Below, one piece after another: positions 4,632 to 38,512 of a stretch of DNA of 64,000 nt. The DNA is taken from positions 14,318 through 78,317 of the IMG/VR virus record IMGVR_UViG_3300011339_000564; one strand, 5' to 3'. The notes under the pieces are model-generated. The model had not been told where the DNA came from and did no database searches. It saw nothing but the letters and a program-made list of their open reading frames with translations. Origin of the DNA: a virus (lineage: Duplodnaviria > Heunggongvirae > Uroviricota > Caudoviricetes). Position numbers and translations under genes: made by a program. Positions within the stretch are counted from its first letter, which is position 1; each line of letters opens with the position of its first letter.

Positions 4632-4666
4632 AATGATAAATACTCTAATAAAATGGAGTATTTACC

Positions 4667-9162: not shown

Positions 9163-9942
9163 ATGCGTTTTACAGAAATATCAGAATCTACAACATCAGG
9201 CTCAGTATCTACTGTAGCAATGCCACTAGGCAAAACTCAAACACGTACTCAAGTATCTGGTTTAGAACCCGTGAAAAAAGTAATGGGCGGCACTGCTAAG
9301 AAAAAAGGTCCATATGGAAATAGTCTTACTGAAGGTGCTATGAAGCAACTTTCAATGGATCTTAAAGAGTTAAAAGACGAAGAATTCAAAAAGAAATATA
9401 ATATGACTAAGCAGGAAGCCCGTACTGAATTATCTGCAAAGCCTGAACCCATCAAAGAAGCAGAACTATCTGAAGATGATATCATATTAGTTCCAGGACA
9501 GGGACGCAAAATGAAAACTGGATTTGTACCGCATGGTCAAAGTCGTGTAGACCATGAAGTAGAAATGGCACGTAGTGATTTATTCAGTGCGGCAAAGAAC
9601 GCTAAACAAGTATATGAAATGATTCATAGTGTATCTGAAGATGAGGGTCTTGAGGGCTGGGTACAAGAAAAGATTATCAAAGCCAACGACTACCTAAATA
9701 CAGTACGTGAATACTTAGAAGGTAAACAAATTCAACAAGAAGCTAGTAGTCTTACATATGAAGGTAAGATTGACTTTGCCAAAAAGATACAAAAGAATGT
9801 AGATAAGAGTAACAAAGCAGTAGTAAAGACTAGAAAAGAAGTTGGTGCAAGAATTGCTGATATTGGTGCAGGCGGCAAAGAACACAATGTTAAAACTGAC
9901 AAAGCGTGGGACGATGCACAAAAAGCAAAGAAAGCAAAATAA
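9163..9942 (+). CDS. Lys/Glu-rich hypothetical protein (259 aa), possibly virion-associated or scaffold-like
   Basis: Long charged ORF directly upstream of the giant protein gene. Confidence 0.5.
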   Translation: MRFTEISESTTSGSVSTVAMPLGKTQTRTQVSGLEPVKKVMGGTAKKKGPYGNSLTEGAMKQLSMDLKELKDEEFKKKYNMTKQEARTELSAKPEPIKEAELSEDDIILVPGQGRKMKTGFVPHGQSRVDHEVEMARSDLFSAAKNAKQVYEMIHSVSEDEGLEGWVQEKIIKANDYLNTVREYLEGKQIQQEASSLTYEGKIDFAKKIQKNVDKSNKAVVKTRKEVGARIADIGAGGKEHNVKTDKAWDDAQKAKKAK

Positions 9943-9943
9943 A

Positions 9944-12900
9944 ATGAGCAATATTCTACAAGGCTTAAACGAAACACAAAAACATGACGGTGTATTCTTG
10001 TTAACAGAATCTCGTACATACAAGTTATGGGAGAGTGCTGGACAAAAGATTAGTGAAGCACAACTAACTGCCGATCAGATTAATCAAATCTTTAAACAAG
10101 TTGAACAAGGTGCTACTGCCGCAGGTGGTAATCGTACAATGCTCGGTAAAGGTAAAGACGCAGCCGGCGCAGTAAAGCAAGCATATGATGATTTGGTGAG
10201 TAAAGCACAGAACTCAGGACCTATTAAAGGTGTTGATGCGATGTACGACAAAGCCGCCGAAAAATTAAAACAAGCAACTGGTGGCGATCAGGGTGTAATG
10301 AAATATGTACAGAAATATCGTGACTTTGCTAAAGAACACCCAGTAGCACAAGGTTTAATATATTCAGCATTAATTGCAGCCGCTGGTATCAGTGGTGCAG
10401 GTATTGGTGGTGCAGCCGCACTAGGTTTGTTTAAGATGGTAGACAAATTGTTACAGGGTGAGAAGTTTAGTACTGCTGTAGGTAAAGGCGTAACTACTGG
10501 TGCAATGGCTTATGGTGCAAGTAAAGTTGGTGATCTTTTCAAAGGTTCACCGCAAGGCGCACCTACTACTGCTGGATCAGACGCTACCGCAGGTGCGGCA
10601 CAAGATACATTGTCTGCGACTAGACAAGCAGTGGAAAAAGAAGCTATGGATGCCATTAAGTCTAGAATTGCCAATGGAGAAATAGCACCCGGCGATCAAG
10701 GTGCCATACGATATTTGGCATACAAAATGCTAGCTGGATCATGTATGCCGCCGCCGTCTATAGAAACTTCTGTAGAAAAATTAATAACACGATCTATGGG
10801 TGATGTAGGAACTAGCGCAACTAATACAGTGTCCGGCACATTGTCAGGTGTTACCGGAGAACAGATGGCTAGTCATCCTGCATACCAAGCAATGATTCAA
10901 AAGTTTGGCAATACACCCGGCGCTCGTCAGGCGGCTATGGCTGCTGCCAAGTCAGCAATTCTTAAGGGACAAGTCAATGAAAGTATCAATTTATCAGAAT
11001 CTCAAATCTTTCTATTGATAGGTAAGATTGTTGAACGTCAACGTAAACTTGACGAAGGCATCATGGATACACTTAAAGGCGCCGCAGGTAAAGCCGCCGA
11101 TTGGGCACAAACTAAAGGAACTAATTTAACAACTAAAGTTACTGCTGACAAATTATTACAAGCGTGGAAGAAAGCTGGTAGTCCAACAGATAGTTTAGAT
11201 GTTGCAAGCATTATTCAAAAAGCTGGTGTACCATCTGATTCAATCAAACAAGTATACACTACAATGCAAATACCTTTTGCAGGTGAAAAAGGTGCAGGTG
11301 CGAGTACAAAACGTAATATAGATGTTGATCCATCAAGTGTTGCACCAGCCGCTCCAACAAGTACACCCACTGCTTCTGCACCGTCAGCTACAGCAAATGC
11401 GCCGGCGGCAGATGCATCACAGCCTGCTACGGCCGCAACTGGCTCTTTAGCACAAGCACAAGAACTCATTGCAAAATTAGATCCAGAAACTAAAACAAAA
11501 CTTATATCAACATTGAAACAAGAGTTGAGTGTAGCTGAAAGTCGAATCAATGAATTATCTAATGAAAAATTAGGACAATACAAAAAAGCCGCAAGTGCTG
11601 ACGCTACTGCCGCTGACAAAGCAGGTGACTATAAGCGTGGTGATAAACGTTTCAGTGGTATTGTTCGTGCAACTAACAAACAGTTTGCTAATGATACTAA
11701 AAAACATGGTCAGCAAGGTGTGGCGGAAGGCTTAGAGCAATCATTATCGTCAATGGTAAGACAAGATCAGACTGAGCGGAATGAGTATGCAACCTTTGTA
11801 AAATCACAAGCAGGTGGTGATTGGTCCAAAGGGGCTAAAATGTATGCTCAACTCAAAAAAAGACCCATCGATGATATATTTGGTGATGCAATAAGATTAA
11901 ACCAGTTTATGAAAATGAAGTTTGATTTTGATAAATTTACCAATGAAGATTGGGACAATTATTGGTTGTTAGCACAGCATTGTGATAATAATCGTGACTT
12001 TCAAAAGAATGCTTTATCAATAATTAAAAAATATCAAGGTACAGATCATTCGCACTACAAATATCTATACGATAGAATCAGTATGGGTCTAACTGGTAAA
12101 CAGAAATACGGAACACAGAATATTAAAGAGCAAGGCGTGGCAGAAGGCTTCCCTCATGATGTTGACCATATGCCGGGTCCTGTGATTCGCAATGCTGATA
12201 TGACTACAGATAATGTCAAGACCAAAGACAAAGCAGAATGGGACAGAGCCACTGATAGCATCAACGCACGGGTGTTTGATGATATGAGTGAATTTCGCAC
12301 TGACAACAACGGTGAAACAGTTGTCGGTGATAGCGCAGTTTGGGCCAAGTGGGACAATGCTACACAAACAGGTTGGTTCAATGCCAAAGGTCGCCCATTA
12401 AAGCCTTGGCCTGTTAAAGAGCAAGGTGTGGCGGAAGGTGATGGGCCAAGATATATTGATAACATAATGAACCAGTATAAGGCAGGCTTGCCTGGCCAAA
12501 ACCCGGCGGCCTTATCTAAACCAACTAGAGCAGTTGATGCCAGAGGTCGCACACAAGAACAATGGGCACAATTAGTTAGGAGCAAGTTTCCGGGTGCTAA
12601 AATTACACAGGCTAAAATGATTGACGGGCCTATGCAAGCAACCTTACCTGATGGTAGAAAACTTGGATGGAAAAAAGTTGAACAAATTGATGAAATTATT
12701 GATCCTAGCACAAAGATGGCATGGGCATTACGCCACATCGCCGGGTTCCTTACTAGATTATTTCCTTACGCAGTGGGCGCCGGAACTTTGTGGGCAGCCA
12801 GTGGACTGTTGGCCCCACTAGTGGCTGCATCCGGTGGAGTGGCCGCGGCAATTTCTGCATTAGGCGGTTCAATGGGATCAGCTACAGGCGCGGCTGCAGG

Positions 12901-13795
12901 AGCAGTTGGCGGTGCCAGTATAATGCAAATTATTAAAAACTTATTTGCCGCAGACGAGAATAGTATACAAGCAGGAATTAAAAAGTGGGTAGAAAGACAA
13001 GTAGGTGACGAAGCCGATGTACAAGAATTTTTACTAACTCATGCCAAAGCCGCATATGACGGTAAACCTGGTTTCCGTTGGAGGGCTAAAGAGTGGCCTG
13101 TTAAATTAAGTAAAGATCAAGCAGAAGCATATTTAGAAAAGAAAGATAAATCTTGGCTTGATTATGAAAAGCAAAAAATAATCGATGCTGAAAAAGCGAA
13201 GGCTGAAAAAGATAAAGAAGGTATGATGGAAGAACAACTTGATGAACTAAATTGCTGGTCAGGTTACCATAGAGTTGCCGGCACTAAAGCAGGCTTTCCA
13301 GGTAGTTGTGCTAAAAATAAAACAAATGAATCAGAACATAAATGCCCACATTGCGGTGGCGAGATGGTTAGTGAAGAACTAATGAATGAAAAGAAAGATG
13401 CTTGCTACTATAAAGTAAAGAGCCGTTATAAAGTATGGCCAAGTGCTTATGCTAGTGGTGCGTTAGTTAAGTGCCGTAAGAGTGGTGCTGATAGCTGGGG
13501 CAACGGTGGAAAGAAGAATGAAGGTTCTATACTAGAAGGTATTAACCGAGCAGACGAAAGTTTGCATGATTGGTTTAATAAAGAAAAGTGGGTTCGCATG
13601 GATACTAAAGGAAAGATTAAAGGTCCGTGTGCTAGAGAACCAGGAGAAGGTAAACCTAAATGTTTACCTCAAGCAAAGGCACATAGTTTAGGCAAAAAAG
13701 GTCGTGCAAGCGCGGCTGCTAGAAAACGCAGAGAAGATCCCAATCCAGAACGTAGTGGTAAAGCCATCAATGTTAATACTAAAAAGAAAGACTAA
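9944..13795 (+). CDS. giant protein (1283 aa). Features are Gly/Ala-rich hydrophobic segments, three EQGVAEG motifs, coiled-coil and a C-terminal Cys cluster. Putative virion internal/ejection protein.
   Basis: ATG at 9944 lies just after the TAA of the upstream ORF; the track start 9842 is an in-frame upstream extension. Motifs: QQGVAEGLEQ, KEQGVAEGFPHD, KEQGVAEGDGPRY; CPHCGG...C...C near the C-terminus; hydrophobic block AVGAGTLWAASGLLAPLVAASGGVAAAISALGG. Confidence 0.75.
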   Translation: MSNILQGLNETQKHDGVFLLTESRTYKLWESAGQKISEAQLTADQINQIFKQVEQGATAAGGNRTMLGKGKDAAGAVKQAYDDLVSKAQNSGPIKGVDAMYDKAAEKLKQATGGDQGVMKYVQKYRDFAKEHPVAQGLIYSALIAAAGISGAGIGGAAALGLFKMVDKLLQGEKFSTAVGKGVTTGAMAYGASKVGDLFKGSPQGAPTTAGSDATAGAAQDTLSATRQAVEKEAMDAIKSRIANGEIAPGDQGAIRYLAYKMLAGSCMPPPSIETSVEKLITRSMGDVGTSATNTVSGTLSGVTGEQMASHPAYQAMIQKFGNTPGARQAAMAAAKSAILKGQVNESINLSESQIFLLIGKIVERQRKLDEGIMDTLKGAAGKAADWAQTKGTNLTTKVTADKLLQAWKKAGSPTDSLDVASIIQKAGVPSDSIKQVYTTMQIPFAGEKGAGASTKRNIDVDPSSVAPAAPTSTPTASAPSATANAPAADASQPATAATGSLAQAQELIAKLDPETKTKLISTLKQELSVAESRINELSNEKLGQYKKAASADATAADKAGDYKRGDKRFSGIVRATNKQFANDTKKHGQQGVAEGLEQSLSSMVRQDQTERNEYATFVKSQAGGDWSKGAKMYAQLKKRPIDDIFGDAIRLNQFMKMKFDFDKFTNEDWDNYWLLAQHCDNNRDFQKNALSIIKKYQGTDHSHYKYLYDRISMGLTGKQKYGTQNIKEQGVAEGFPHDVDHMPGPVIRNADMTTDNVKTKDKAEWDRATDSINARVFDDMSEFRTDNNGETVVGDSAVWAKWDNATQTGWFNAKGRPLKPWPVKEQGVAEGDGPRYIDNIMNQYKAGLPGQNPAALSKPTRAVDARGRTQEQWAQLVRSKFPGAKITQAKMIDGPMQATLPDGRKLGWKKVEQIDEIIDPSTKMAWALRHIAGFLTRLFPYAVGAGTLWAASGLLAPLVAASGGVAAAISALGGSMGSATGAAAGAVGGASIMQIIKNLFAADENSIQAGIKKWVERQVGDEADVQEFLLTHAKAAYDGKPGFRWRAKEWPVKLSKDQAEAYLEKKDKSWLDYEKQKIIDAEKAKAEKDKEGMMEEQLDELNCWSGYHRVAGTKAGFPGSCAKNKTNESEHKCPHCGGEMVSEELMNEKKDACYYKVKSRYKVWPSAYASGALVKCRKSGADSWGNGGKKNEGSILEGINRADESLHDWFNKEKWVRMDTKGKIKGPCAREPGEGKPKCLPQAKAHSLGKKGRASAAARKRREDPNPERSGKAINVNTKKKD

Positions 13796-13804
13796 AGGAC
13801 AATA

Positions 13805-14245
13805 ATGTTATCAGATAATCTAAAAGTACTTTTAGCTAGTACACAAAGTTTTGCTATTAAAACACAAAACTTTCATTGGAATGTTGAGGGGAGTAATTTT
13901 CCACAGTATCATGCATTTTTTGATACGTTATACGGTGATGTAAGTGCTACTATCGATCCTATCGCTGAATATATCAGAATATTAGGTGCTTACACACCCG
14001 GCAGTTTACAACGTTATGCTGAACTAAGTATCATTCAAGACCAAATCAAAATCCCACGTGCTCAACTAATGTTTGCTGAATCACTACAAGATTGTGAAAA
14101 AATGAGTGAATTAGTCGTTGCTATGTTTGACGAAGCAACAAACGAACGTCAGCAAGGCATTGCTAATTACATGGCTGAACTACAAGACCTATACGGTAAG
14201 AAAGCATGGTTCATTCGTTCTACATTGAAAACAGAACGTGAGTAA
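13805..14245 (+). CDS. dps: Dps-like ferritin-fold DNA-protection protein
   Basis: LKVLLASTQSFAIKTQNFHWNVEGSNFPQYHAFFDTLY matches the Dps N-terminal signature (HWNVxGxxFxxLHxxF). About 146 aa, typical Dps length. Confidence 0.7.
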   Translation: MLSDNLKVLLASTQSFAIKTQNFHWNVEGSNFPQYHAFFDTLYGDVSATIDPIAEYIRILGAYTPGSLQRYAELSIIQDQIKIPRAQLMFAESLQDCEKMSELVVAMFDEATNERQQGIANYMAELQDLYGKKAWFIRSTLKTERE

Positions 14246-15515
14246 ATTAGAATTTACCCAGAAAGAATGGGAAAAGATAGAAAATAACGGGACTTATTGT
14301 CCCGGTTTATTTAACAGCAAATACATAGAAACTGACGGTGGACTGAGAGCATGTTGTGTTCAAGATTTAAAAGGTGAACATTATACAAATACAGAATCCT
14401 ATAACACCACTTCGTTAAAACAAGCCAGACAAAATTCATTATCAGGGATTAAAGATTCCAGTTGCGCTAGATGTTGGGAAAATGAATCATTAAACACCAG
14501 ATCATATAGACAAGGTCTAGTAGAGTCTGCTATTCACTGGAAAAGTAAAATCAAAGATAATATAAATGTTGACTATTCCATCACAGAACCCACCATAGAC
14601 TACTTAGACATTAGATTTGATAATATCTGTAATTTAAGATGTAGATATTGCAGTACTATTTTTAGTTCTAGTTGGAGACACGAAACTGAGTTACTAGAAA
14701 AAGAATTACCAATATTTAAATATATAAAAAGAAGATCAGTAGATACAAAAATATTGAATAGTGTAACCGATATTGACACGATATTAGCTGACCTTAGAAC
14801 AGTTAAAAAAATATTTTTTGCGGGTGGCGAGCCATTAGTAAACGATAAACATTATGAAGTGTTAGAATATCTAATAGATAATAATAGAACCAACATTGAA
14901 ATAACGTATAATACTAATTTTACAAACATTAAAAAAGTTATTCCTTATTGGAAAAAGTTTTCAAACATACACGTGGGTGCAAGTTTAGATGCAAATTATA
15001 AAAGAGGAGAATACATTCGTAAAAATCTCGTATGGGACCAGATTGTAGAAAATAGAAAATTAATGATTGCCGAAGTTCCTCATGTTCAATTTGAAATAAA
15101 TGCGTCAATGAGTATATTGAATGCGTATAATGTAGTAGATTTTCATAAAGAATGGATTAATGATAAATTAATTGGACCTTTTGATTTAACTGCATGGAAT
15201 TTTGTATCTAAACCTGAACATTATGATATTAGGAATTTACCTGACCATCATAAGATTAAATTAAAAGAAATATATCAAACTCATATTGATTGGTTAAACT
15301 CCCTCACATCAGGCAATGATATTAAGTTTAAAAGTAAAAATGATTCTAGTTTTGCTATTCAATCATATCAAGGTATAATTAATAGGTTAAATTTAAGTAG
15401 AAATTCATCTTTTGACAAATTTTGGGAATTTGACAAATGGTTAGATAATAATAGAGATGAAAACTTTTTTGATGTGTTTCCTGAGTATGAGGACTTTGCT
15501 AGATATTTTAGCTAA
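14238..15515 (+). CDS. radical SAM domain protein with an N-terminal Cys-rich extension
   Basis: CNLRCRYC is a CX3CX2C radical SAM cluster motif. Additional N-terminal cysteines (CPG...ACC...CARC). No C-terminal SPASM cysteines. GTG start assumed at 14238. Confidence 0.65.
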   Translation: MSKLEFTQKEWEKIENNGTYCPGLFNSKYIETDGGLRACCVQDLKGEHYTNTESYNTTSLKQARQNSLSGIKDSSCARCWENESLNTRSYRQGLVESAIHWKSKIKDNINVDYSITEPTIDYLDIRFDNICNLRCRYCSTIFSSSWRHETELLEKELPIFKYIKRRSVDTKILNSVTDIDTILADLRTVKKIFFAGGEPLVNDKHYEVLEYLIDNNRTNIEITYNTNFTNIKKVIPYWKKFSNIHVGASLDANYKRGEYIRKNLVWDQIVENRKLMIAEVPHVQFEINASMSILNAYNVVDFHKEWINDKLIGPFDLTAWNFVSKPEHYDIRNLPDHHKIKLKEIYQTHIDWLNSLTSGNDIKFKSKNDSSFAIQSYQGIINRLNLSRNSSFDKFWEFDKWLDNNRDENFFDVFPEYEDFARYFS

Positions 15516-15544
15516 ATATTATTATAAGAACAATAGAGAGTAAC

Positions 15545-15982
15545 ATGAAAAAAATTATAACAACAATACTATTGGCATTAGCCACTGTAACATATGCACA
15601 GAAAACACCTCAAGGTGTTACATACGATGCAAACATCATTAAAGTAAGTGACGGTGACACTATTGTTATTGCCGCACCTTTTTTACCAGCTCCATTAAAG
15701 CCACAGTTAGCAGTTAGAATATTTGGTGTTGACACCCCTGAAAAAGGATTCAGAGCTAAATGTGAATCAGAAAATCAACGTGGTTTAGCCGCTAGCGAGT
15801 TTACTAAGAAACTCGTAGGTGCTAGTCAGAAGCGTCAAGTGATATTATATGATTGGGATAAGTTTGGCGGCCGTGTCTTGGGTGACATTATATTAGACGG
15901 CAAAAGCCTACGACAACAATTGATTGCTAATGGCTTTGCCCGTGAGTATTTTGGTGAAGCCAAGCAATCTTGGTGTAATTAA
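15545..15982 (+). CDS. secreted staphylococcal-nuclease-like thermonuclease (SNase fold)
   Basis: Signal peptide MKKIITTILLALATVTYAQ. VSDGDTIVI...RIFGVDTPEKG matches the SNase catalytic region. Confidence 0.7.
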   Translation: MKKIITTILLALATVTYAQKTPQGVTYDANIIKVSDGDTIVIAAPFLPAPLKPQLAVRIFGVDTPEKGFRAKCESENQRGLAASEFTKKLVGASQKRQVILYDWDKFGGRVLGDIILDGKSLRQQLIANGFAREYFGEAKQSWCN

Positions 15983-16707
15983 TTCTTAGTATAAACAAAG
16001 TATAATCTATCGTTATTGTCTTTCTTAAAGGTATCTAACTTTAGATTGTATTTCTCAGCAAACTCATTTACAACTTCAAAGCTCCAAGGGAAGATTTCTA
16101 CATAAGGTCCATTTTTGTGAGGAATTCCTGGATTGGCTCGTAGATAAAATTTTCCACCTACCTTTAGCAAACTAACACAGTGTTCAAATCGTGTTTCAAT
16201 CTCATCTTTGCTATTGAAGTTAATTGAACCAAGAGCCAGAATTACATCGTGTGATTCTGGTTTTACTTTGTACTCTAATATATCAACTTCATAATCAGCT
16301 TGATTATTGTATGGATCAATGCCAATCAGATTCTGAATGCGACCCTTGAATGGGTGATATCCGCAACCAACATCAAGTACTTTTTCTGGGTTTAGTTTGT
16401 TAACTTCATCAGCTAGTTCCCAACCAGTGTGTTCATAGTCACCTGTGCGTGGTTTCCAAATCTCACTAAAAAAACGTAAGATATAACGTTCACTTAAGTC
16501 ATGTACAATTTCTTTTAATGTACCCACATAGTCGCAGGGTAGACTTAATTCAGCTTCCACCGCGTTTTTAAACTTGCTATATCGTGCAGGAGTCCAGGGT
16601 AAGTCTTGGACAATAGTGTTTTCATCAATAGAAATTTTGGAATACTTAGGTAAATTAAACGCAAGTTCTAAATTTTCCTTGACTAACTTAAAAATTTTTG
16701 TGTTCAT
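15979..16707 (-). CDS. class I SAM-dependent methyltransferase
   Basis: Motif I VLDVGCGYHPF. A lone minus-strand gene among plus-strand genes. Confidence 0.65.
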   Translation of the reverse strand: MNTKIFKLVKENLELAFNLPKYSKISIDENTIVQDLPWTPARYSKFKNAVEAELSLPCDYVGTLKEIVHDLSERYILRFFSEIWKPRTGDYEHTGWELADEVNKLNPEKVLDVGCGYHPFKGRIQNLIGIDPYNNQADYEVDILEYKVKPESHDVILALGSINFNSKDEIETRFEHCVSLLKVGGKFYLRANPGIPHKNGPYVEIFPWSFEVVNEFAEKYNLKLDTFKKDNNDRLYFVYTKN

Positions 16708-16787
16708 AGTAATTTTTTCTATATTTTGTAAATTTTTATGCCAAATGGAATAAATATATGTTCATCATATTTATTATCGGAGGACAG

Positions 16788-17747
16788 ATGAGAAAACTTT
16801 TAGTATTATTAGCATTTATACCGTTAGTTGCTTTTGCTTGGCAACCAACAAAACCTGTAACAGTTATATTCCCAAATGGCCCGGGAGCAGGAAATGAAAT
16901 ATCATTTCGTATTGTAGCAGAGATTGTAGAAAAACAAACTGGTGCAAAATTTGTACCTGAATATAGGCCGGGAGCTGATGGCAATATAGCTATCAATCAC
17001 TTTGTAACAGTTCCTACTGATGGGCACACTATCAGTGTTCCGGCATGTCAGTCAAATTGGGTCACCCCTGAAGTGTGGTATCCAAAGGTAATCAAGTATA
17101 ACCCAATGGATTTAGAACCCATTGCTAATATTGCACGTAGTCCATTAGCATTCTGGGCGCATCCTAGCAGTAAGATTAATACTCCCGAAGAACTAGTAGC
17201 CGCTATTCGCAAAAAAGAGCGCCCTATTACAATAGCAATAGGTGGCGGCGGTCATAAGTTAGCAGTTGAATATCTTGCTGCCAAACTAAATGTACCGGGC
17301 GGTGATCGAATAGAAACAGCTATGTATAAAGGTCCAGCACAAGCGTTATTAGATGTAATGGGAGGTCACGTTGAATTTGGAGTGACCCCGGTTGCTGTTG
17401 GATACCCTCACGTACAAACAGGAAAACTAAAGTTAATTGGTATTGCTGATACTAGACCATTGCCTGGATTAGAAACAGCACCATTGATGAATAAGGCAGC
17501 ACCTGGATTAAGCATACATGGTTGCTGGAATATAGTTCTACCTCCCAATACCCCGCAGGATATACAAAAATGGTATGCTGAACACTTTGTTCCTGCAATA
17601 CGTAGCGCGGAAGCAGGCGCTAAATTCAAAGAAAACATGATGTACATTACACCCGAAGAACATAGCCCAGCAGGTGTTCGTGCTAGTATGTCGAGACTAC
17701 AGCAAGTTTGGCAACCGATTGCTAGAAGAATAGATCCTAATAAATGA
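16788..17747 (+). CDS. TctC/Bug-family periplasmic solute-binding protein (tripartite tricarboxylate transporter receptor-like)
   Basis: Signal peptide MRKLLVLLAFIPLVAFA. Length and motifs (PNGPGAGNEISFRIVAE, EYRPGADGNIAI) resemble the Bug/TctC family. Start chosen at the internal ATG 16788 with GGAGGA upstream. Confidence 0.55.
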   Translation: MRKLLVLLAFIPLVAFAWQPTKPVTVIFPNGPGAGNEISFRIVAEIVEKQTGAKFVPEYRPGADGNIAINHFVTVPTDGHTISVPACQSNWVTPEVWYPKVIKYNPMDLEPIANIARSPLAFWAHPSSKINTPEELVAAIRKKERPITIAIGGGGHKLAVEYLAAKLNVPGGDRIETAMYKGPAQALLDVMGGHVEFGVTPVAVGYPHVQTGKLKLIGIADTRPLPGLETAPLMNKAAPGLSIHGCWNIVLPPNTPQDIQKWYAEHFVPAIRSAEAGAKFKENMMYITPEEHSPAGVRASMSRLQQVWQPIARRIDPNK

Positions 17748-18319
17748 AAATAGGTTTATCAATGGAGATGACCCGCAAGTTGCGTGATACGTGGCATGCG
17801 GCTATCAATTACGAATGGTATGACTTTTTATCAGAGCATGATACTGTTCCTTTATCCTGTCATGGAAAAGTTCCGCAGACAGATGAGTTTGACTTAATCA
17901 TATTGGCAGGTGGTAATGACATGCACGGCATTAAAACATGGCGTGACAATCATTATCCAATACGTGACCACTATGAGCATAGTTTGATTCAACAATGTTT
18001 GTTAACTAACACCCCTGTTGCTGGCATATGCAGAGGAGCTCATTTTATCAATCATGTTATGGGTGGCACACATAAGTTAATGGATCACCCATACGACAAT
18101 GTTAAAGTTCAATTGCCTCAGTTTGAAGTAACTTGCCATCACACAATTCAACTTGATACATTAGCTCCTGGCTTTGAAGTGTTACAACAAGATAAAAATG
18201 GTATTGTTGAATTAGCAGTAAATAAATCACAACGTATGTTAGGTATTGGTTGGCATCCAGAACGTGAAGTTAACAAACATACTAGACAATACATTTTAGA
18301 TTTGATTAAGGACTTATGA
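17744..18319 (+). CDS. class I glutamine amidotransferase-like protein
   Basis: GICRGAHFINHV (nucleophile-elbow-like Cys) and GWHPERE (His-Pro-Glu of the GATase triad). Confidence 0.5.
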   Translation: MKIGLSMEMTRKLRDTWHAAINYEWYDFLSEHDTVPLSCHGKVPQTDEFDLIILAGGNDMHGIKTWRDNHYPIRDHYEHSLIQQCLLTNTPVAGICRGAHFINHVMGGTHKLMDHPYDNVKVQLPQFEVTCHHTIQLDTLAPGFEVLQQDKNGIVELAVNKSQRMLGIGWHPEREVNKHTRQYILDLIKDL

Positions 18320-18936
18320 AATACATATTTGTAGCAGGTGCACCGGGCAGTAAGTGGAGTAGTGTGGTAAAGAACATTTACTATAGCCCTAGTGTTGACC
18401 AATCAGACTATAGTGATGATAGAACATATTATCACGATGCCAGTGGTAAGTTGGAGTTGATGCATCTAGGTGCATACTATGATCCTGGTATGGAGTTTGG
18501 TAAATTGTTTCACAGACTACCTATGTATGACAAAGAAACATTAGAACGTGACTTTGATGAAGCATTTACTGGTGAAGGTGTTCGTATTATTAAGTCACAC
18601 GTGTTTAGTAATCACATTGACTATATCAAAGAAACATGGCCTGAATGTCCATTAGTTCTGGTGCATCGTCCCGATGACGCATGTTTAGGATGGTGGGTGA
18701 AGTGCGGGCATTTCAACATCACATACCCTGACTATAGTGAATATTATCAGAACTTGAAAGTAATGGCTGAAAAGATTAAAGAACAGAATCAGGGTATTAT
18801 CAAAGCAACATATAAGTATCCAGGTCGAGCACCATTAACTAATCACATGCTGTGTAAGATGCTAAATATAGAACTACCACCGAGTGAGTATGAACAAAAT
18901 TACGGTGTATCAAACATAAGGGTAACAGTAATATGA
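18316..18936 (+). CDS. hypothetical protein with a P-loop-like N-terminus (possible sulfotransferase/kinase fold)
   Basis: FVAGAPGSKWSSV resembles the sulfotransferase PAPS-binding or kinase P-loop; not conclusive. Confidence 0.4.
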   Translation: MKYIFVAGAPGSKWSSVVKNIYYSPSVDQSDYSDDRTYYHDASGKLELMHLGAYYDPGMEFGKLFHRLPMYDKETLERDFDEAFTGEGVRIIKSHVFSNHIDYIKETWPECPLVLVHRPDDACLGWWVKCGHFNITYPDYSEYYQNLKVMAEKIKEQNQGIIKATYKYPGRAPLTNHMLCKMLNIELPPSEYEQNYGVSNIRVTVI

Positions 18937-19619
18937 TAAGCAGTTGGGAACAAAGTAAGAAAAAAAGTAATTATCATTTTGATAATTTCAAAAATGATTT
19001 ACAAGTTGACAAAGTAACTAAGTTGGGTAAGATAGTTGCAGACTACAGTGAGGATGTTAAACATGCAATAGAATCTTCAAAGCCAGCAACATGGCGTACA
19101 CGTGGTGCAGTGGGTAAAACAAGACCTGAAGAAGAATTAGCCGCAGAAGACTATGATTTGGAACAATTTGGTTATGGTAAAGATTATCAAATCACTCACT
19201 TAAATTGGGAAATAACTCCTAACTTGAAAAAGATTAGTGATTTGTTCGGTCTATCAGATTGCATGGAACGTATACATGTTCAAAAGCCCGGTGAAGTTTG
19301 GAATCTGCATTTAGATAAATTAGAGAAGTGGGCACCCGATTCACCTTGGACAGTCATGCGTGTGCAAGTAGCATTGACTGATTGGGAGCAAGGTCATTTC
19401 TGGAGTTATGGTAATTACAATCATCAGCAATGGCATGCAGGCGATGTGACAACATTTGACTGGCATAATTTACCACATTGTACTGCAAATGCAGGACATA
19501 ACCCTAGAGTCACGTTTCAATTAACTGGTGTTATTACTGAAAAAACTAAAGAGTTTTTAAGTAGATTAAAGAGATTTGATAATTATACCTTGAATTTGTC
19601 AGAGAATTCTTGGTTCTGA
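18933..19619 (+). CDS. hypothetical protein (228 aa)
   Basis: ORF overlapping the previous stop. Confidence 0.5.
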   Translation: MISSWEQSKKKSNYHFDNFKNDLQVDKVTKLGKIVADYSEDVKHAIESSKPATWRTRGAVGKTRPEEELAAEDYDLEQFGYGKDYQITHLNWEITPNLKKISDLFGLSDCMERIHVQKPGEVWNLHLDKLEKWAPDSPWTVMRVQVALTDWEQGHFWSYGNYNHQQWHAGDVTTFDWHNLPHCTANAGHNPRVTFQLTGVITEKTKEFLSRLKRFDNYTLNLSENSWF

Positions 19620-19741: not shown

Positions 19742-19981
19742 ATGAAAGAACATATCTACACATCATCCAAAGGAGAGAGTTTTTTATCATGGGATGATTG
19801 GGCACTCCAAACACTAAACGAAAGTGATTTGAGTGTTTATCTTAGCCCCCAAGTAGAAGGTTCAACATTATCTGCTGATAAATTGGCTTTATATGCACGT
19901 TGGGTAGACGAAGAACAAATATTAACACACGTTGTTAAAGAAGATGATGTTATAATACAACAATCAAATGCACTCAAGTAA
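19742..19981 (+). CDS. hypothetical small protein (start moved to the internal ATG at 19742)
   Basis: AAGGA lies upstream of the ATG at 19742. The track start at 19712 lacks an SD. Confidence 0.4.
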   Translation: MKEHIYTSSKGESFLSWDDWALQTLNESDLSVYLSPQVEGSTLSADKLALYARWVDEEQILTHVVKEDDVIIQQSNALK

Positions 19982-20540
19982 TTTTATTACAGAATCTGCC
20001 GTAGATGAGTTAGCAAAAAAACTACCCTCATTGACTAAACACGACTATGATACCATTGATACATTAATGAGAAGTATTGCCAGTAGACATAGCATGAGTG
20101 GTAATGCATTACATGATTTGTTTGTAAAAAAATATAAAAGAACACCCGATAACTGGATTAAACATAAATTAGACGAAGGTGATGATTCAGATTTGCAACA
20201 AGAAGTTGATAAATTCTGCGATTGGGCATGTAAACGATTGCATATAAAATCTAAACCTGAAATTGAACTCAGTATGGATACTGAAGAAGCACAAAATAAT
20301 CATCATACAGGTGGTCATCAAATGGGCGCTGATAGTATTTGGGTATATGTAAATAATCGTAACCTAGTTGATATACTACGCACAGTATTTCATGAATTGG
20401 TTCATGTGCGCCAAGGTGAATTAGATATGATTAAGCCGGGTGATAGTTACCCAGGTAGCCCAATTGAAGCAATGGCAGATATGCTTGCGGGCAAATACAT
20501 CAAAATTTATGGTGAACAGAACCATCATATCTTTCAATAA
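19968..20540 (+). CDS. putative small zinc metallopeptidase (HExxH)
   Basis: FHELVHVRQGE contains HExxH in a short (190 aa) protein. Confidence 0.45.
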   Translation: MHSSNFITESAVDELAKKLPSLTKHDYDTIDTLMRSIASRHSMSGNALHDLFVKKYKRTPDNWIKHKLDEGDDSDLQQEVDKFCDWACKRLHIKSKPEIELSMDTEEAQNNHHTGGHQMGADSIWVYVNNRNLVDILRTVFHELVHVRQGELDMIKPGDSYPGSPIEAMADMLAGKYIKIYGEQNHHIFQ

Positions 20541-20560
20541 TTGATTATTTGTGCTATAAT
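20532..20560 (+). promoter_or_regulatory. sigma70-like promoter (TTTCAA-17-TATAAT). The ATG at 20567 is 6-7 nt downstream, so the transcript is probably leaderless.
   Basis: TATAAT at 20555-20560. The -35-like hexamer TTTCAA sits 17 nt upstream. Confidence 0.4.
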
Positions 20561-20566
20561 GCACAG

Positions 20567-21163
20567 ATGATTAAGATTACAGTTCCATTACCCAAACAAA
20601 TTACTGTTGCATGTAGCGGCGGTGTTGATAGTATGGCTGTAGTTGACTTTCTAAGTCGCAAACACGATGTAACTATTGCCCATTTTAATCATAGAACACA
20701 AAACGGTGAACGTGCCGCCCAATTTGTTTCTGGGTATTGTGGTGATAATAATATTCCTATGCTATACGGATCACCTCGCAGTGAACGCGGAACAAAAGAA
20801 TCAATGGAAGAATATTGGCGCAGAGAACGATATGAATTCCTAAGCGAATTAGGACCGGTCATCACTTGTCATCATCTGGATGACTGTGTTGAGACATATG
20901 TTTGGTCTAGTTTACATGGTACAGCCAAAGTTATCCCACTCACTCGCAAAAATGTATTGCGCCCATTTTTAACTACACGTAAGAGTGAATTTGTTCGATG
21001 GTGTGAACAACATAAAGTTCCTTGGATTGAGGACGAATCAAACAAAGATACCAAATACACAAGAAATTACATTCGCAACGAAATGATGCCACATATATTG
21101 AAAGTCAATCCGGGCATTCATACTTTGGTCAAGAAGATTGTAGAAGGTAAGCAAAATACTTGA
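20567..21163 (+). CDS. tilS: TilS-like PP-loop ATPase: the tRNA(Ile)-lysidine synthetase catalytic domain only (about 198 aa)
   Basis: SGGVDS PP-loop. CHHLDDCVETYVW matches the TilS AHHLDDQxETFL block. RPFL...WIEDESNKDTKYTRNYIRNEMMP matches TilS RPLL...WIEDESNQD..Y.RN.LR. It lacks the QueC C-terminal Zn cysteines, so it is not QueC. Confidence 0.7.
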   Translation: MIKITVPLPKQITVACSGGVDSMAVVDFLSRKHDVTIAHFNHRTQNGERAAQFVSGYCGDNNIPMLYGSPRSERGTKESMEEYWRRERYEFLSELGPVITCHHLDDCVETYVWSSLHGTAKVIPLTRKNVLRPFLTTRKSEFVRWCEQHKVPWIEDESNKDTKYTRNYIRNEMMPHILKVNPGIHTLVKKIVEGKQNT

Positions 21164-31070: not shown

Positions 31071-31760
31071 ATGTTTGAAACAACTTATACAGATAATGTA
31101 AATTACCGTTCTGCTAGCGAAATTAACTCAGCAATGGGCCGTGTTTATGGTCACATGAGTCTAGCTGTCATTGTATCAATGTTAGTTAGCTATTTTGTAG
31201 GCTCTAGTCCAGAGTTACTACAATTCTTTTTTACAGGTGTATTGAAATGGATTGTGATCTTTGCCCCATTAGCGGCAATATTTGGTGTTGCTATGGTCCT
31301 AGGTAACAACCCTAGTAAGGGCGTAGCACAACTATGTTTACATGGATTTGCCGCACTAATGGGATTAAGTTTTGCTACAATCTTTGCTGTATTCAACATG
31401 GGTAGTATTGTAAGCTCATTTATGGGAGCAGCCATATTGTTTGGCGTTATGAGTGGCTATGGTTATTTTACTAAACAAAGTTTAGACAGTCTTGGCAAGT
31501 TTATGTTTGTTGGATTGATTGCAATAGTTATTGCCAGCATTGTCAATATCTTTATCGGCAGTACCGTAATGCAAATGGTTATCAGTGCGTTGGCTATCAT
31601 TATCTTTTTAGGATTGACTGCTTACGACACACAAAAGATTCGTGAAGAATTAAGTCTAGAAACCAGTGATAGTGCAGAAGTACGCGGTGCATTAACATTG
31701 TACATGGACTTCATTAATTTGTTTATTAACCTCTTACAACTATTTGGTGATAGGAAATAA
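31071..31760 (+). CDS. Bax-inhibitor-1/YccA-family integral membrane protein
   Basis: Seven predicted TM segments, about 229 aa. N-terminal AMGRVYGHMSLAVIVSML resembles the BI-1/YccA signature. Confidence 0.5.
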   Translation: MFETTYTDNVNYRSASEINSAMGRVYGHMSLAVIVSMLVSYFVGSSPELLQFFFTGVLKWIVIFAPLAAIFGVAMVLGNNPSKGVAQLCLHGFAALMGLSFATIFAVFNMGSIVSSFMGAAILFGVMSGYGYFTKQSLDSLGKFMFVGLIAIVIASIVNIFIGSTVMQMVISALAIIIFLGLTAYDTQKIREELSLETSDSAEVRGALTLYMDFINLFINLLQLFGDRK

Positions 31761-33144: not shown

Positions 33145-33825
33145 ATGAGTTATAATAAAACAAAAACAGATCCAGAGTTGGGTCAACGAGTACACGAACA
33201 TCTAGTTAAGATGGGTGTTGAAACTCCCACTAATCCAAACAACTATGACCGTAAAGAAAAGATAGATCATATTGAAGCGCATTTTACACACATTATGCGT
33301 ATCTTGGGTCTTGACTTAACAGACGATAGTTTGATTGAAACCCCTAAGCGTGTTGCCAAGATGTATGTCAACGAAATCTTTTGGGGACTTGACTATGACG
33401 CATTCCCTAAATGTACAACAGTTGACAACAAGATGCAATACAACGAAATGGTTGTAGAGCGTAATGTTAACGTTCAATCTAACTGCGAACATCATTTTGT
33501 AGTCATCGATGGACTAGCTACTGTAGCTTATGTCCCTAAACAAAAAGTTCTAGGGCTTAGTAAGATAAACCGTATCGTAGAATATTTTAGCAAAAGGCCT
33601 CAAATCCAAGAGAGGTTAACAGAGCAAATTTTTCACACCTTACAGTTCATCCTTGAAACAGAAGATGTTGCAGTTATGATTGATGCACAACACTATTGTG
33701 TAAAATCACGTGGTGTAGAAGATACGGGATCTAGTACTGTTACTTGTCGTTTAGGTGGCGGTTTCAAATCAGATCCTGCGGCAAGACAAGAGTTTTTACA
33801 GATTGCTAACAAAGGTTGCAAATGA
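33145..33825 (+). CDS. folE: GTP cyclohydrolase I (FolE)
   Basis: NCEHHFVVI (CEHH zinc site) and overall FolE-like length; SD AAGGAAGG. Confidence 0.85.
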   Translation: MSYNKTKTDPELGQRVHEHLVKMGVETPTNPNNYDRKEKIDHIEAHFTHIMRILGLDLTDDSLIETPKRVAKMYVNEIFWGLDYDAFPKCTTVDNKMQYNEMVVERNVNVQSNCEHHFVVIDGLATVAYVPKQKVLGLSKINRIVEYFSKRPQIQERLTEQIFHTLQFILETEDVAVMIDAQHYCVKSRGVEDTGSSTVTCRLGGGFKSDPAARQEFLQIANKGCK

Positions 33826-37469: not shown

Positions 37470-37667
37470 ATGAACAAAAAAATTACAGAACTATGGGAAC
37501 AGGCCGCTCAACGAGATGACTTACTAGACGAAAAACGGTATGAGCATTTTGCTGAATTATTAATTAGAGATTGTGCAAAACAAGTTAATCATCTGGCTAA
37601 ACAAGGTGGCGGAACTTGGGGCGAAGTCATTCTAGAAAACTACAATATAAGTGTATATAAAAAATGA
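37470..37667 (+). CDS. member of the small 'FAELIVREC' paralog family (65 aa)
   Basis: HFAELLIRDCAKQV is shared with six other small ORFs in the window. Confidence 0.45.
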   Translation: MNKKITELWEQAAQRDDLLDEKRYEHFAELLIRDCAKQVNHLAKQGGGTWGEVILENYNISVYKK

Positions 37668-38512
37668 GTCATTTAAAAGTATCAGAATTATTTTACAGTA
37701 TCCAGGGAGAAGGTCGCTATATGGGAGTGCCAAGTATTTTCCTAAGAACATATGGATGCAATTTTACATGCGGTGGCTTCGGTATGCCTAAGGGAGAAAT
37801 GAGTAATGAGAGAGATGTTATCGCAATTAAAGCAGAAGATTATACAGATTATAAATCCTTACCACTTGTCAGTACTGGATGTGATAGTTACGCATCTTGG
37901 GACCCTCGCTTTAAACATCTTAGTCCTGTTATCTCTACCGATTCTATTGCTGACAGTATTATGGATATACTTCCTCACAAGCGTTGGATGGATGAACATC
38001 TTGTTATTACAGGTGGTGAACCTTTGCTTGGATGGCAAAGAGCGTATCCAGACTTACTTTCAAACGAGAAAATGAGAGCATTGAAAGAGATTACATTTGA
38101 AACTAATGGCACACAAGAACTAAGTAAAGACCTTACTAACTATCTTCATCAATGGAAGATCAGCCGTGAAAATAACGCACTTACATTCAGTGTGAGTCCT
38201 AAACTTAGTATCAGCGGTGAGAAGTGGGAAGAAGCAATATGTCCACAAGTTGTTCGTCAATATGAAAGTGTTGGCTTTGTATATCTTAAATTTGTTATTG
38301 CTACTAAAGAAGATGCGATTGAGGCAGATAAAGCAGTTAAAGAATTTCGTACAGCTGGATTCAGAGGTCCAATATACTTCATGCCATGCGGTGGTGTAGA
38401 AAGTATCTATAATTTAAATGCTAGAAATGTTGCTATTGAAGCAATGAATCGTGGCTATCGCTATAGTGATAGATTACAGGTGCCTCTATTTAAAAATGAA
38501 TGGGGGACATAA
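37664..38512 (+). CDS. queE: QueE-like 7-carboxy-7-deazaguanine synthase (radical SAM) with atypical cysteine spacing
   Basis: YSIQGEGRYMGVPSIFLRTYGCNFTC matches the QueE N-terminus (QGEG...GCNxxC). The third cluster Cys is displaced by a long insertion. Confidence 0.65.
   Translation: MSHLKVSELFYSIQGEGRYMGVPSIFLRTYGCNFTCGGFGMPKGEMSNERDVIAIKAEDYTDYKSLPLVSTGCDSYASWDPRFKHLSPVISTDSIADSIMDILPHKRWMDEHLVITGGEPLLGWQRAYPDLLSNEKMRALKEITFETNGTQELSKDLTNYLHQWKISRENNALTFSVSPKLSISGEKWEEAICPQVVRQYESVGFVYLKFVIATKEDAIEADKAVKEFRTAGFRGPIYFMPCGGVESIYNLNARNVAIEAMNRGYRYSDRLQVPLFKNEWGT

Follow-up and report, generated by a model that had tools for sequence, protein, structure and literature searches.

Natural-product tailoring sets such as CyrI, CyrJ and CyrN of cylindrospermopsin and SulN, SulO and SulP of sulfazecin combine a hydroxylase with a sulfotransferase, with or without an APS kinase and a methyltransferase, and the bacterial sulfotransferase RaxST has its own PAPS-supplying partners, RaxP and RaxQ. 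Orphan receptors of the Bug/TctC type stand beside catabolic enzymes in Betaproteobacteria, and cyanophages encode the binding protein PstS; the one role known for TctC/Bug proteins is the binding of carboxylates in the periplasm. The DNA analysed here, a stretch of 64,000 nucleotides (the window), derives from an uncultured jumbo phage of a large, apparently freshwater clade. Between positions 13805 and 19619 it follows the enzyme logic of the Cyr and Sul sets, an Fe(II)/2-oxoglutarate-dependent oxygenase with a sulfotransferase and a methyltransferase, to which some related phages add an APS-kinase-like gene. The likeness is one of enzyme kinds, and the phage differs in having a lytic jumbo-phage genome without NRPS/PKS scaffold-building machinery and a periplasmic solute receptor in place of scaffold biosynthesis.

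The run of accessory genes that an earlier note had described in this interval is borne out as gene content, each of the eight open reading frames lying where it had been placed, and the Dps, radical SAM, signal-peptide SNase, TctC/Bug and class-I GATase assignments are upheld by Pfam scores and motifs. Domain searches altered one call, since the protein described as P-loop-like has a sulfotransferase fold, and added a 2OG-Fe(II) oxygenase (18933-19619) that the earlier note had left undescribed. The possibility that these genes would turn out to be an incoherent set from routine nucleotide metabolism found no support, none of them belonging to such metabolism. The interval lies between a gene for a giant, putatively structural protein of 1317 aa and small genes that may be of early type. 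As for the proposed single coherent island, neighbourhood comparison confirms it for the right half, a conserved unit, but not for the left half, which is mosaic among the related loci compared; the interval is thus made up of two separate parts, a cargo slot with exchangeable contents and, next to it, a conserved module.

The left border of the slot is formed by a conserved Dps-like mini-ferritin gene (13805-14245, plus strand, 146 aa); of 56 related loci, 21 have a Dps gene within range. Its product matches Pfam Ferritin with 58.8 bits and phrog_3636 with an E value of 4.8e-29 and retains the ferroxidase motif H24-x11-H36-x14-D51-x3-E55, while its scores against the NCBIfam Dps equivalogs are under their cutoffs. 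Downstream of this gene the content is hypervariable: the window, L090 and L093 carry a radical SAM gene and an exported SNase, L091 a Peptidase_U49, a GH19 and an SNase gene, L092 and L022 an Endonuclease_NS, and L025 and L037 an SNase and nothing else. The radical SAM gene (14238-15515, plus strand, 425 aa) is facultative cargo, because it is missing from L022, where the flanking genes are 80-93% identical to those of the window, and because a relative of 57% identity in L101 lies at another genome site, adjoining SOD and epimerase genes. A relative of 74% identity occupies the same post-Dps slot in L099 and L100; most related loci lack the gene, and three have weak matches (23-31%) elsewhere.

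The radical SAM protein scores 43 bits against Pfam Radical_SAM and resembles the N_Twi_rSAM family (NF033640) in its full-length match (302.8 bits, cutoff 170), in its CX3CX2C motif (C131x3C135x2C138) and in an N-terminal Cys-rich auxiliary-cluster region, with further cysteines at 21, 39, 40, 76 and 79. The extra N-terminal cysteine set had been recognized correctly, whereas the accompanying statement that a SPASM domain is missing is half right: the set represents an N-terminally placed SPASM/twitch element, and Pfam SPASM matches residues ~12-91 in relatives of 34-43% identity but is below significance on the sequence from the window. Our searches found no function for the NF033640 family. 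Its distant relatives occur in marine arrays comprising several radical SAM paralogues, a PNP_UDP_1 protein (MTA/SAH-nucleosidase family) and a SAM synthetase, a context that the window does not share. The exported nuclease (15545-15982, plus strand, 145 aa) matches Pfam SNase with 41.3 bits, contains the catalytic motif R58-IFGV-D63-T-P-E plus G-R110 and begins with a visible Sec signal peptide, MKKIITTILLALATVTYA/QK. The same position holds an SNase in 10 of 56 loci and an unrelated exported Endonuclease_NS in 15. At its 3' end, the SNase gene overlaps the converging methyltransferase gene by 4 nt.

From a comparison of 88 related loci, containing 65 distinct sulfotransferase sequences on uncultured phage contigs of 200-520 kb, only the methyltransferase, TctC, sulfotransferase and oxygenase genes emerged as a conserved unit. 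The oxygenase gene is present in 83 of 85 related loci. Eighteen loci extend at least 5.5 kb to either side and share no flanking gene with the window; of these, 16 retain the methyltransferase, 16 TctC and 17 the oxygenase, whereas flank genes are retained in only ~40-50% of loci. The stop of the sulfotransferase gene and the start of the oxygenase gene share a 4-nt overlap in 59 loci, and an overlap of the same type joins the sulfotransferase gene to its upstream gene in 50; the four genes form a conserved, translationally coupled module with the methyltransferase on the minus strand. This pattern bears on the idea that no shared pathway exists and that the genes, each with an auxiliary or host-takeover function of its own (iron storage, an exported nuclease, a nutrient-uptake receptor and assorted tailoring enzymes), have accumulated in an insertion-tolerant region and remain syntenic by descent. 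All loci were recruited by sulfotransferase similarity (63-98%) and stem from related phages of one clade, so part of the synteny could reflect inheritance and not functional coupling; in addition, the left half is mosaic, the GATase, the APS-kinase-like gene and other inserts vary in presence, and in the one deposited genome that has a homologue, that of a marine virus, the sulfotransferase-like gene adjoins psbA and no homologue of the oxygenase could be detected. Nevertheless, retention of the core genes where every flanking gene differs, the conserved start/stop overlaps and the invariably divergent methyltransferase, which points to co-regulation, make this idea unlikely in our judgement.

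The methyltransferase gene (15979-16707, minus strand, 242 aa) is found in 62 of 65 loci, and in all 65 of its occurrences it lies on the minus strand, divergent from the TctC operon. The protein consists of a unique N-terminal region of ~95 aa and a Rossmann domain with motif I, VLDVGCG, at residue 110. Like the sulfotransferase and the oxygenase, it stays under the thresholds of curated families; in 14-18 of 19 orthologues, matches to Methyltransf_23/25/11/CMAS fall short of the threshold, but remote relatives exceed the Methyltransf_23 cutoff (P0382, 32.1 bits; P0416, 46.1 bits). Motif I and the profile matches of relatives therefore support the predicted class-I SAM-dependent methyltransferase, in accordance with the earlier reading of this reverse-strand gene, even though it has no above-threshold family match of its own. 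Mean column identity among methyltransferase orthologues is 84%. This protein and the sulfotransferase show a level of conservation similar to that of the DNA polymerase, which suits an essential phage process, such as modification of virions or nucleic acids, no less than auxiliary metabolism.

The divergent intergenic region (16708-16787) contains ATAAATA on both strands (16750-16756, plus; 16768-16774, minus), and these elements may be promoters for the two transcription units, that of the methyltransferase and that of TctC. In 39 distinct orthologous regions, TAAATA occurs on the plus strand in 31 and on the minus strand in 34, compared with 18-21% in shuffles, and the plus-strand copies cluster 37-41 nt upstream of the ATG. 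Across the window, 7 of the 20 ATAAATA copies fall within the 5% of the DNA that is intergenic and are directed at downstream genes. The motif also precedes the GTP cyclohydrolase I gene and is therefore uninformative on late timing.

The coupled operon opens with TctC (plus strand, 319 aa), which is found in 60 of 65 loci. Its frame is open from 16758, and translation probably starts at 16788, 5 nt after a GGAGGA ribosome-binding site, giving a gene of 16788-17747. The protein matches Pfam TctC with 77.9 bits and has a visible signal peptide, MRKLLVLLAFIPLVAFA/WQ, that ends in AFA/WQ. Like orphan Bug receptors it lies next to enzymes and lacks TctA and TctB partners, no TctA-like multi-TM protein being encoded within the window, and like cyanophage PstS it is made by the phage for the periplasm and depends on a host transporter. 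It differs from orphan Bug receptors in its distance from bacterial homologues, none of which is close (best 27-30%), and in diverging more between phages (23-96% identity) than the accompanying enzymes; the low identity to bacterial proteins argues for a long-standing phage lineage and against recent capture. The following gene (17744-18319, plus strand, 191 aa) encodes a stand-alone class-I GATase of the C26 gamma-glutamyl hydrolase type (Peptidase_C26, 68 bits; GATase, 32.9 bits). The triad reported for it, Cys-His-Glu, is intact, with a nucleophile elbow GIC96RG followed by H171-P-E, and its best NCBIfam match, gamma-glutamyl-CDP-amidate hydrolase, reaches 73.6 bits against a cutoff of 250, which makes it a non-member. 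This gene is a facultative operon member, occurring in 17 of 65 loci and at times upstream of TctC.

The next gene (18316-18936, plus strand, 206 aa) encodes the sulfotransferase-fold protein at the core of the module. Sulfotransfer_3 is its sole recurrent Pfam signal (sub-threshold in 20 of 24 members), a protein of 62% identity in BFVD is named 'Sulfotransferase family', and the invariant K93-S-H95 and R118-P-D-D121 align to the region of Sulfotransfer_3 positions 106-154. The enzyme would depend on PAPS. Against this, its 5'-phosphosulfate loop, PGSKWSS, is non-canonical and is also similar to a shortened kinase P-loop. We regard it as decidedly improbable that the protein is instead a small-molecule or nucleotide kinase, with hydroxylation followed by phosphorylation, because nine sulfotransferases ranked over every kinase, a canonical GK[ST] Walker A is absent, the invariant residues lie in the part that aligns to Sulfotransfer_3, and that family gives the only recurrent Pfam signal. 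Protein-tyrosine sulfotransferases head the sulfotransferase matches, which counts against the small-molecule reading favoured below. Identity to the human tyrosylprotein sulfotransferases TPST1/2 is only 12-14%, and the phage protein differs from TPST1/2 and RaxST in size (206 versus ~270-330 aa), in having PGSKWSS and not P(R/K)SGTT, in failing the Pfam sulfotransferase thresholds and in having no gene for a peptide substrate or for secretion beside it.

The last gene, joined to that of the sulfotransferase by translational coupling, encodes a proline-hydroxylase-like Fe(II)/2OG oxygenase (plus strand, 228 aa), the two best matches of which act on free proline or pipecolate. It has its own N-terminal helical region, which sets it apart from the free L-proline cis-4- and cis-3-hydroxylases (PDB 4p7x and 1e5r), to which no sequence-profile match was found. 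The profile searches made against PDB sequences all came up without a significant match. Phage thymidine hypermodification has a 5-hydroxymethyluracil DNA kinase step, and by analogy the oxygenase could act on DNA or tRNA and hydroxylate a base or methyl group there, the P-loop-derived enzyme activate the hydroxyl with a sulfate or phosphate leaving group for substitution, and the methyltransferase supply or cap the group. Such nucleic-acid hypermodification is improbable in the extreme, as no TET/JBP-type match was found among the top 60 structural matches, the methyltransferase has no DNA-methyltransferase family match, the module conserves no leaving-group-displacing transferase and an exported solute receptor would have no role in it.

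A somewhat less doubtful alternative, still improbable, is that the three enzymes of the module (oxygenase, sulfotransferase and methyltransferase) carry out post-translational modification of a protein of the phage or its host, such as a fibre of the virion or the giant protein encoded nearby, through prolyl hydroxylation, O-sulfation of tyrosine or hydroxy-amino acids and methylation, with TctC as an unrelated co-transcribed passenger. Against it, free amino acids are the substrates of both top oxygenase matches, the surroundings of the module show no conserved candidate for a substrate protein, and this reading leaves unexplained why an exported small-molecule receptor should be translationally coupled to the other genes in 60 of 65 loci; late expression cannot be invoked in its favour from ATAAATA, given the GTP cyclohydrolase I copy.

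What was observed for the module is its set of genes, their folds and intact catalytic motifs, their conserved linkage and their translational coupling. The best explanation for the interval as a whole is a cargo slot next to a conserved module which probably hydroxylates and sulfates a substrate, to which we assign a probability of roughly 0.45. The small-molecule modification pathway suggested earlier is the best reading of the conserved half, though it rests on genes other than those then stressed. According to this two-part reading, the TctC receptor would be exported to the host periplasm, bind a carboxylate, amino-acid-like solute and hand it to host TctAB membrane components; in the cytoplasm the oxygenase would add a hydroxyl group, which the sulfotransferase would O-sulfate with PAPS, and the methyltransferase would add a methyl group, while the C26 enzyme, where encoded, may free substrate or product from a gamma-glutamyl amide. 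We hypothesize that the enzymes act in this order on one common substrate. This would be a small molecule, in keeping with the place of TctC in the same coupled operon and with the free amino acids used by the two best oxygenase matches.

PAPS would come from the host here, and in some relatives possibly from a phage APS-kinase-like enzyme, whose gene, absent from the window, lies directly 3' of the module in 15 of 70 related loci. Against Pfam APS_kinase (cutoff 21.1) this protein reaches 45.2 bits; the five best NCBIfam matches are adenylyl-sulfate kinases or fusions with that domain, all under the cutoffs. As the match covers no more than the N-terminal two thirds of the Pfam model and the C-terminus is NMN-adenylyltransferase-like, it may instead be a NadR-like NAD-salvage enzyme. 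The kinds of enzyme brought together in this locus are known, and their combination would represent a previously uncharacterised phage module.

The interval studied (13805-19619) comprises eight closely spaced ORFs, seven of them encoded on the plus strand and one, 15979-16707, on the minus strand. It belongs to a T4-superfamily jumbo phage, the family-B DNA polymerase of which shares 44-49% identity with its counterparts in Sinorhizobium phage Phosso, Agrobacterium phage Atu_ph07 and the Klebsiella RaK2 group. A JGI metagenome contig of 77 kb and several contigs from ENA and Logan contain the same sequence, and a megablast search of the interval against 50,697 deposited phage records gave no DNA-level match. 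When the eight proteins were joined and compared with the deposited phages by tblastn, only scattered single-gene matches were obtained, to the SNase-family nuclease in Rhizobium and Synechococcus phages, to Dps in S-SRM01 and, at 22-25%, to the radical SAM protein in Ralstonia and Vibrio jumbo phages. Matches to the methyltransferase, sulfotransferase-like protein and oxygenase taken together were limited to three contigs of Marine virus AG-345-D19, and consequently cultured relatives give no neighbourhood information. The contigs of this marine single-cell-associated virus carry weak homologues of the sulfotransferase-like protein and of the methyltransferase, alone among the 50,697 deposited phage genomes, in which no oxygenase homologue was found. 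One of these homologues (280 aa, L097:5974-6816, MH319720.1) retains the motifs GAPGSRW, KSH and YRPDDAC and adjoins psbA and thyX, without the oxygenase, on a marine cyanophage-like contig; other contigs of the same virus hold a second sulfotransferase-like copy and the weak methyltransferase homologue.

The sulfotransferase-like protein (18316-18936), used as a query, recruited 288 IMG/VR loci, of which 80 were kept and, with contigs from later look-ups, make up 88 loci with 65 distinct sulfotransferase sequences; some of the compared contigs span 200-520 kb, and presence was scored only where flanking DNA sufficed. Among loci with coverage, the oxygenase (18933-19619) was found in 83 of 85, the methyltransferase, always on the minus strand, in 62 of 65, and the periplasmic receptor TctC in 60 of 65. 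The corresponding counts are 17 of 65 for the C26/GATase gene, 21 of 56 for Dps, 10 of 56 for SNase, and 33 and 22 of 70 for the downstream neighbours o190 (a 190-aa ORF, 19968-20540) and a TilS-like gene, respectively. Eighteen loci have 5.5 kb or more of sequence on either side and lack all of the window's flanking genes; among these, the methyltransferase and TctC were each retained in 16 and the oxygenase in 17. Likewise, the stop of the sulfotransferase gene overlaps the oxygenase start by 4 nt in 59 loci, and the end of TctC or C26 overlaps the sulfotransferase start by the same length in 50. Flank-independent retention and these two conserved overlaps show that the four-gene core is a unit. 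The alternative that its members share no pathway draws on the fact that all compared loci come from one clade, but is weakened by the same linkage and overlaps. Since this core is conserved, and the stretch from Dps to the methyltransferase has a mosaic make-up even in near-identical phages, the island is a composite, with a cargo slot beside a conserved module, and not the one pathway that the earlier note had considered among its possibilities. It can be misleading to interpret a run of genes as a single operon-like pathway; here the radical SAM gene, the one that most catches the eye, is the least conserved. As to the downstream neighbours, the TilS-like gene (20549-21163) encodes a 204-aa protein that corresponds to the TilS N-terminal PP-loop domain alone (TIGR02432, 126 bits, cutoff 93.6), without the tRNA-binding C-terminal domains, and in many relatives it is kept with o190 and o88 upstream of the DNA polymerase.

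The slot is occupied by radical SAM and SNase genes in the window and in two related loci (L090 and L093), by Peptidase_U49, GH19 and SNase genes in L091, by an Endonuclease_NS with a signal peptide in L092 and L022 (and in 15 of 56 loci altogether), and by SNase alone in L025 and L037. Family searches mostly bore out the domain calls of the earlier note, namely Dps, radical SAM, SNase, TctC and C26/GATase. Dps matches PF00210 (Ferritin) with 58.8 bits and carries the ferroxidase residues H24, H36, D51 and E55 at Dps spacing, in agreement with a ferritin-like fold and an inter-subunit ferroxidase site, and scores under the cutoff of the NCBIfam Dps equivalogs (45 vs 114 bits). On its other side lies a 1317-aa protein (9842-13795) that contains three copies of the motif (E/Q)QGVAEG, long low-complexity tracts rich in Ala, Gly, Pro and Thr, two hydrophobic segments and a C-terminal part rich in Cys. 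The radical SAM protein matches the Pfam family Radical_SAM (43 bits) and, over residues 19-420, NF033640, 'twitch domain-containing radical SAM protein' (302.8 bits, cutoff 170). Its cysteines comprise CX3CX2C at C131/135/138 and an N-terminal set, C21/39/40/76/79. This extra set had been noticed before and was taken to accompany the absence of a SPASM domain; the set stands, and the absence does not, because Pfam SPASM matches residues ~12-91 in relatives 34-43% identical, so that the N-terminal cysteines form a SPASM/twitch auxiliary-cluster domain placed at the N-terminus. Comparison of this protein with the PDB gave noise only, and a literature search on twitch radical SAM proteins returned nothing specific.

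The radical SAM gene is absent from most related loci, including L022, whose giant protein and Dps are 93-94%, and module genes 80-92%, identical to those of the window. A 74% identical relative occupies the same slot after Dps, and another, 57% identical, has SOD and an epimerase as neighbours at a different place in a related genome. Relatives of about 34% form arrays of three paralogues in marine contigs (L102:7001-15659), followed in L102 by an MTA/SAH-nucleosidase-family (PNP_UDP_1) gene and SAM synthetase, a SAM-intensive cluster. SNase matches PF00565 (41.3 bits, cutoff 21) with R58, D63-T-P-E66 and R110 intact, and inspection of the sequences revealed typical Sec signal peptides at the start of both SNase and TctC. 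The position directly upstream of the methyltransferase is held either by SNase (15545-15982 in the window) or by Endonuclease_NS (L022:5671-6546, L092:2923-3741), both with signal peptides, a clean case of non-orthologous replacement between unrelated families, which suggests that these phages are under selection for a DNase that acts in the periplasm or outside the cell. The SNase and methyltransferase genes converge and share 4 nt at their 3' ends (15979-15982), which leaves no space for a terminator between the opposing transcripts.

On the other side of the methyltransferase, the 80-nt region that separates it from TctC carries ATAAATA on each strand (16750, plus; 16768, minus). Of 39 distinct orthologous intergenic regions, 31 contain TAAATA on the plus strand and 34 on the minus strand, against 18-21% in shuffles, and the plus-strand copy stands 37-41 nt before the ATG. 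Seven of the 20 ATAAATA copies in the window fall in intergenic DNA, which makes up 5% of the sequence, and are oriented at downstream genes, including that of GTP cyclohydrolase I; intergenic sites at 4636, 16750, 16768 (minus), 33077, 53825 (minus) and 54451 lie 7-70 nt upstream of genes. The element resembles the T4 late promoter, TATAAATA, and may serve as a promoter in this group of phages. The promoter region of its own that had been proposed for the methyltransferase thus gains backing from the conserved divergent elements, as a putative assignment. The GTP cyclohydrolase I gene (33145-33825, 207 bits) is accompanied in the window by one for a weak radical SAM/Fer4_12 protein (37664-38512), and in a related phage (L101:13991-17021) GTP cyclohydrolase I is found with PTPS (QueD-type) and a Vut_1/YhhQ-type transporter, a gene set that may represent a 7-deazaguanine/queuosine-precursor pathway.

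Within the module, the reverse-strand protein (15979-16707) is a predicted class-I SAM methyltransferase, on the grounds of motif I, recurrent sub-threshold matches and remote homologues over the cutoff. Motif I, VLDVGCG at 110-116, and GIDP, with the acidic post-I residue of a Rossmann-type enzyme, are both invariant. The window protein scores below the curated family threshold (best 16.4 bits, cutoff 27); sub-threshold matches to Methyltransf_23, 25 and 11 recur in 14-18 of 19 orthologues, and three homologues found with phmmer exceed the Methyltransf_23 cutoff (P0382, 32.1 bits; P0448, 27.6; P0416, 46.1). Its N-terminal region of ~95 residues is unique, the fusion partners of remote relatives contain no recognisable domains, and the divergent homologues sit on contigs too short for their context to be read.

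The protein encoded at 18316-18936, described previously as P-loop-like, has a predicted sulfotransferase alpha/beta fold in an AlphaFold model built on 66 homologues (pLDDT 87.5). No family match of the window protein is above threshold (Sulfotransfer_3, 13.4 bits, cutoff 27), and the same sub-threshold match recurs in 20 of 24 orthologues (best E 5.5e-4); a 62%-identical protein in a viral structure library has the UniProt name 'Sulfotransferase family', and the top matches are protein-tyrosine sulfotransferases. P10-G-S-K13-W-S-S, K93-S-H95 and R118-P-D-D121 are invariant and, by eye only, resemble PKSGTT, K-T-H and R-N-P-x-D, as if they were variant forms of, respectively, the 5'-phosphosulfate loop, the region of the catalytic His and the 3'-phosphate motif. 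A kinase in place of a sulfotransferase is possible, given that the phosphate-binding loop is atypical. The family comprises 4131 clusters at 90% identity, and all named public copies examined of this protein, the oxygenase and the methyltransferase are labelled 'hypothetical protein'. In 21 of 70 relatives the sulfotransferase and oxygenase genes are separated or followed by the gene for a 209-aa protein with the N-terminal P-loop-like motif TGPQGSGNH and without family match (L015:10618-11250, L094:11292-11921 and about 20 other loci); considered as a second sulfotransferase paralogue, this protein was rejected, with an hhalign probability below 1% and no detectable relation.

The support for putative sulfuryl transfer from PAPS is contextual and comes from an APS-kinase-like gene (265 aa) that in 15 of 70 loci immediately follows the module, a fusion seen at L094:11912-12709, L012:2860-3663 and about 15 other related loci. 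Its N-terminal half matches Pfam APS_kinase (45.2 bits, cutoff 21.1) over only model positions 4-94 of 152 and, by eye, retains the CysC pattern LDGDxxR / FS…R…R / FI(S/A)P; its top five NCBIfam matches, all under the cutoffs, are adenylyl-sulfate kinases or fusions containing that domain. The C-terminal half resembles NMN adenylyltransferase (HxGH), and the domain order, kinase then adenylyltransferase, mimics that of animal PAPS synthase; a minimal PAPS synthase is one possible identity, and a NadR-like enzyme of NAD salvage is another. The window lacks this gene, so PAPS would here have to come from the host. A literature search on phage sulfotransferases and APS kinases returned nothing specific.

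The oxygenase (18933-19619), which the earlier note had left undescribed, is predicted to adopt a double-stranded beta-helix fold (pLDDT 78.7), and H126-x-D128, H182 and R192-x-T194, invariant in 68 sequences, correspond to an iron triad and the basic residue for the 2OG C5-carboxylate. It has no Pfam, NCBIfam or PHROG match, its profile found among PDB sequences only a non-significant match to AtsK (E 0.47), and the family comprises 1244 clusters at 90% identity. Its best matches are to enzymes that use free proline or pipecolate as substrate, and those to prolyl hydroxylases are only slightly lower in score. Taken with the protein-tyrosine type of the sulfotransferase matches, the latter make modification of a protein by the module enzymes a serious alternative to small-molecule chemistry; the methyltransferase and sulfotransferase, moreover, show roughly the degree of conservation of the DNA polymerase, as would suit a core function. 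Hypermodification of nucleic acids lacks specific support, as neither a TET/JBP-like match nor a DNA-methyltransferase signature was found. It is conceivable, and we consider it unlikely, that this widespread freshwater jumbo-phage clade possesses a sulfation system of its own (hydroxylase, sulfotransferase and, in some, PAPS supply) for a phage-essential macromolecule, such as a virion protein or a hydroxylated DNA or tRNA base, the sulfate on a base being then a charge tag or a leaving group for further hypermodification. We know of no description of sulfation as a modification of phage macromolecules.

The small-molecule reading, which we prefer, rests in part on TctC, which matches PF03401 (77.9 bits, cutoff 27), has a visible signal peptide and probably starts at 16788, directly after GGAGGA. 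To our knowledge, Bug/TctC proteins have no established role other than to bind carboxylates in the periplasm for TctAB transporters. Neither TctA nor TctB is encoded in the 64-kb window, in which a single ORF reaches six TM-like segments and none has more, so the receptor would have to use host components. This ORF (31071-31760) encodes a Bax inhibitor-1/YccA-family protein (Bax1-I, 180 bits). Recent capture of TctC from a host was considered and rejected, as the search found no bacterial homologue exceeding 30%; between phages its identity is 23-96%, far more divergent than the adjoining enzymes. Given this divergence, the lack of a close bacterial homologue and the absence of a TctA-like protein, we regard it as a receptor of long standing in phages, made by the phage to operate with the TctAB of its host. 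A literature search on phage TctC returned nothing specific. The facultative C26/GATase protein is a generic C26/class-I GATase with intact triad (Peptidase_C26, 68 bits; GATase, 32.9 bits; GIC96RG and H171-P-E). As a Campylobacter MeOPN gamma-glutamyl-CDP-amidate hydrolase of the phosphoramidate pathway (NF045546) it falls far short (73.6 bits, cutoff 250), and pairing with the downstream TilS-type PP-loop protein as an amidotransferase was likewise dismissed, the two showing no consistent co-occurrence.

Based on the gene content, folds, motifs and linkage shown here for the module, we hypothesize that the phage receptor would take up a carboxylate, perhaps amino-acid-like, via host TctAB, that the oxygenase would hydroxylate it, that the sulfotransferase would O-sulfate the new hydroxyl, and that the divergently transcribed enzyme would methylate the product, a gamma-glutamyl amide being cleaved where the C26 enzyme is present. 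That the enzymes share one substrate, that the steps follow this order and that sulfation depends on PAPS is what we infer. The same enzyme logic is found in bacterial natural-product tailoring, for example in CyrI/CyrJ/CyrN of cylindrospermopsin and SulN/SulO/SulP of sulfazecin. All components of the module belong to known enzyme kinds, and literature searches returned no description of the methyltransferase/TctC/sulfotransferase-like/oxygenase combination. Should the proposed scheme hold, a defined enzyme chemistry could be assigned to thousands of phage proteins now called 'hypothetical', and phage-directed hydroxylation and sulfation would join the known auxiliary metabolism of aquatic phages. 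Infection would then be tied to the PAPS and sulfur metabolism of the host and to its tripartite tricarboxylate transport, which also offers a clue to the host, in which TctAB should be present.
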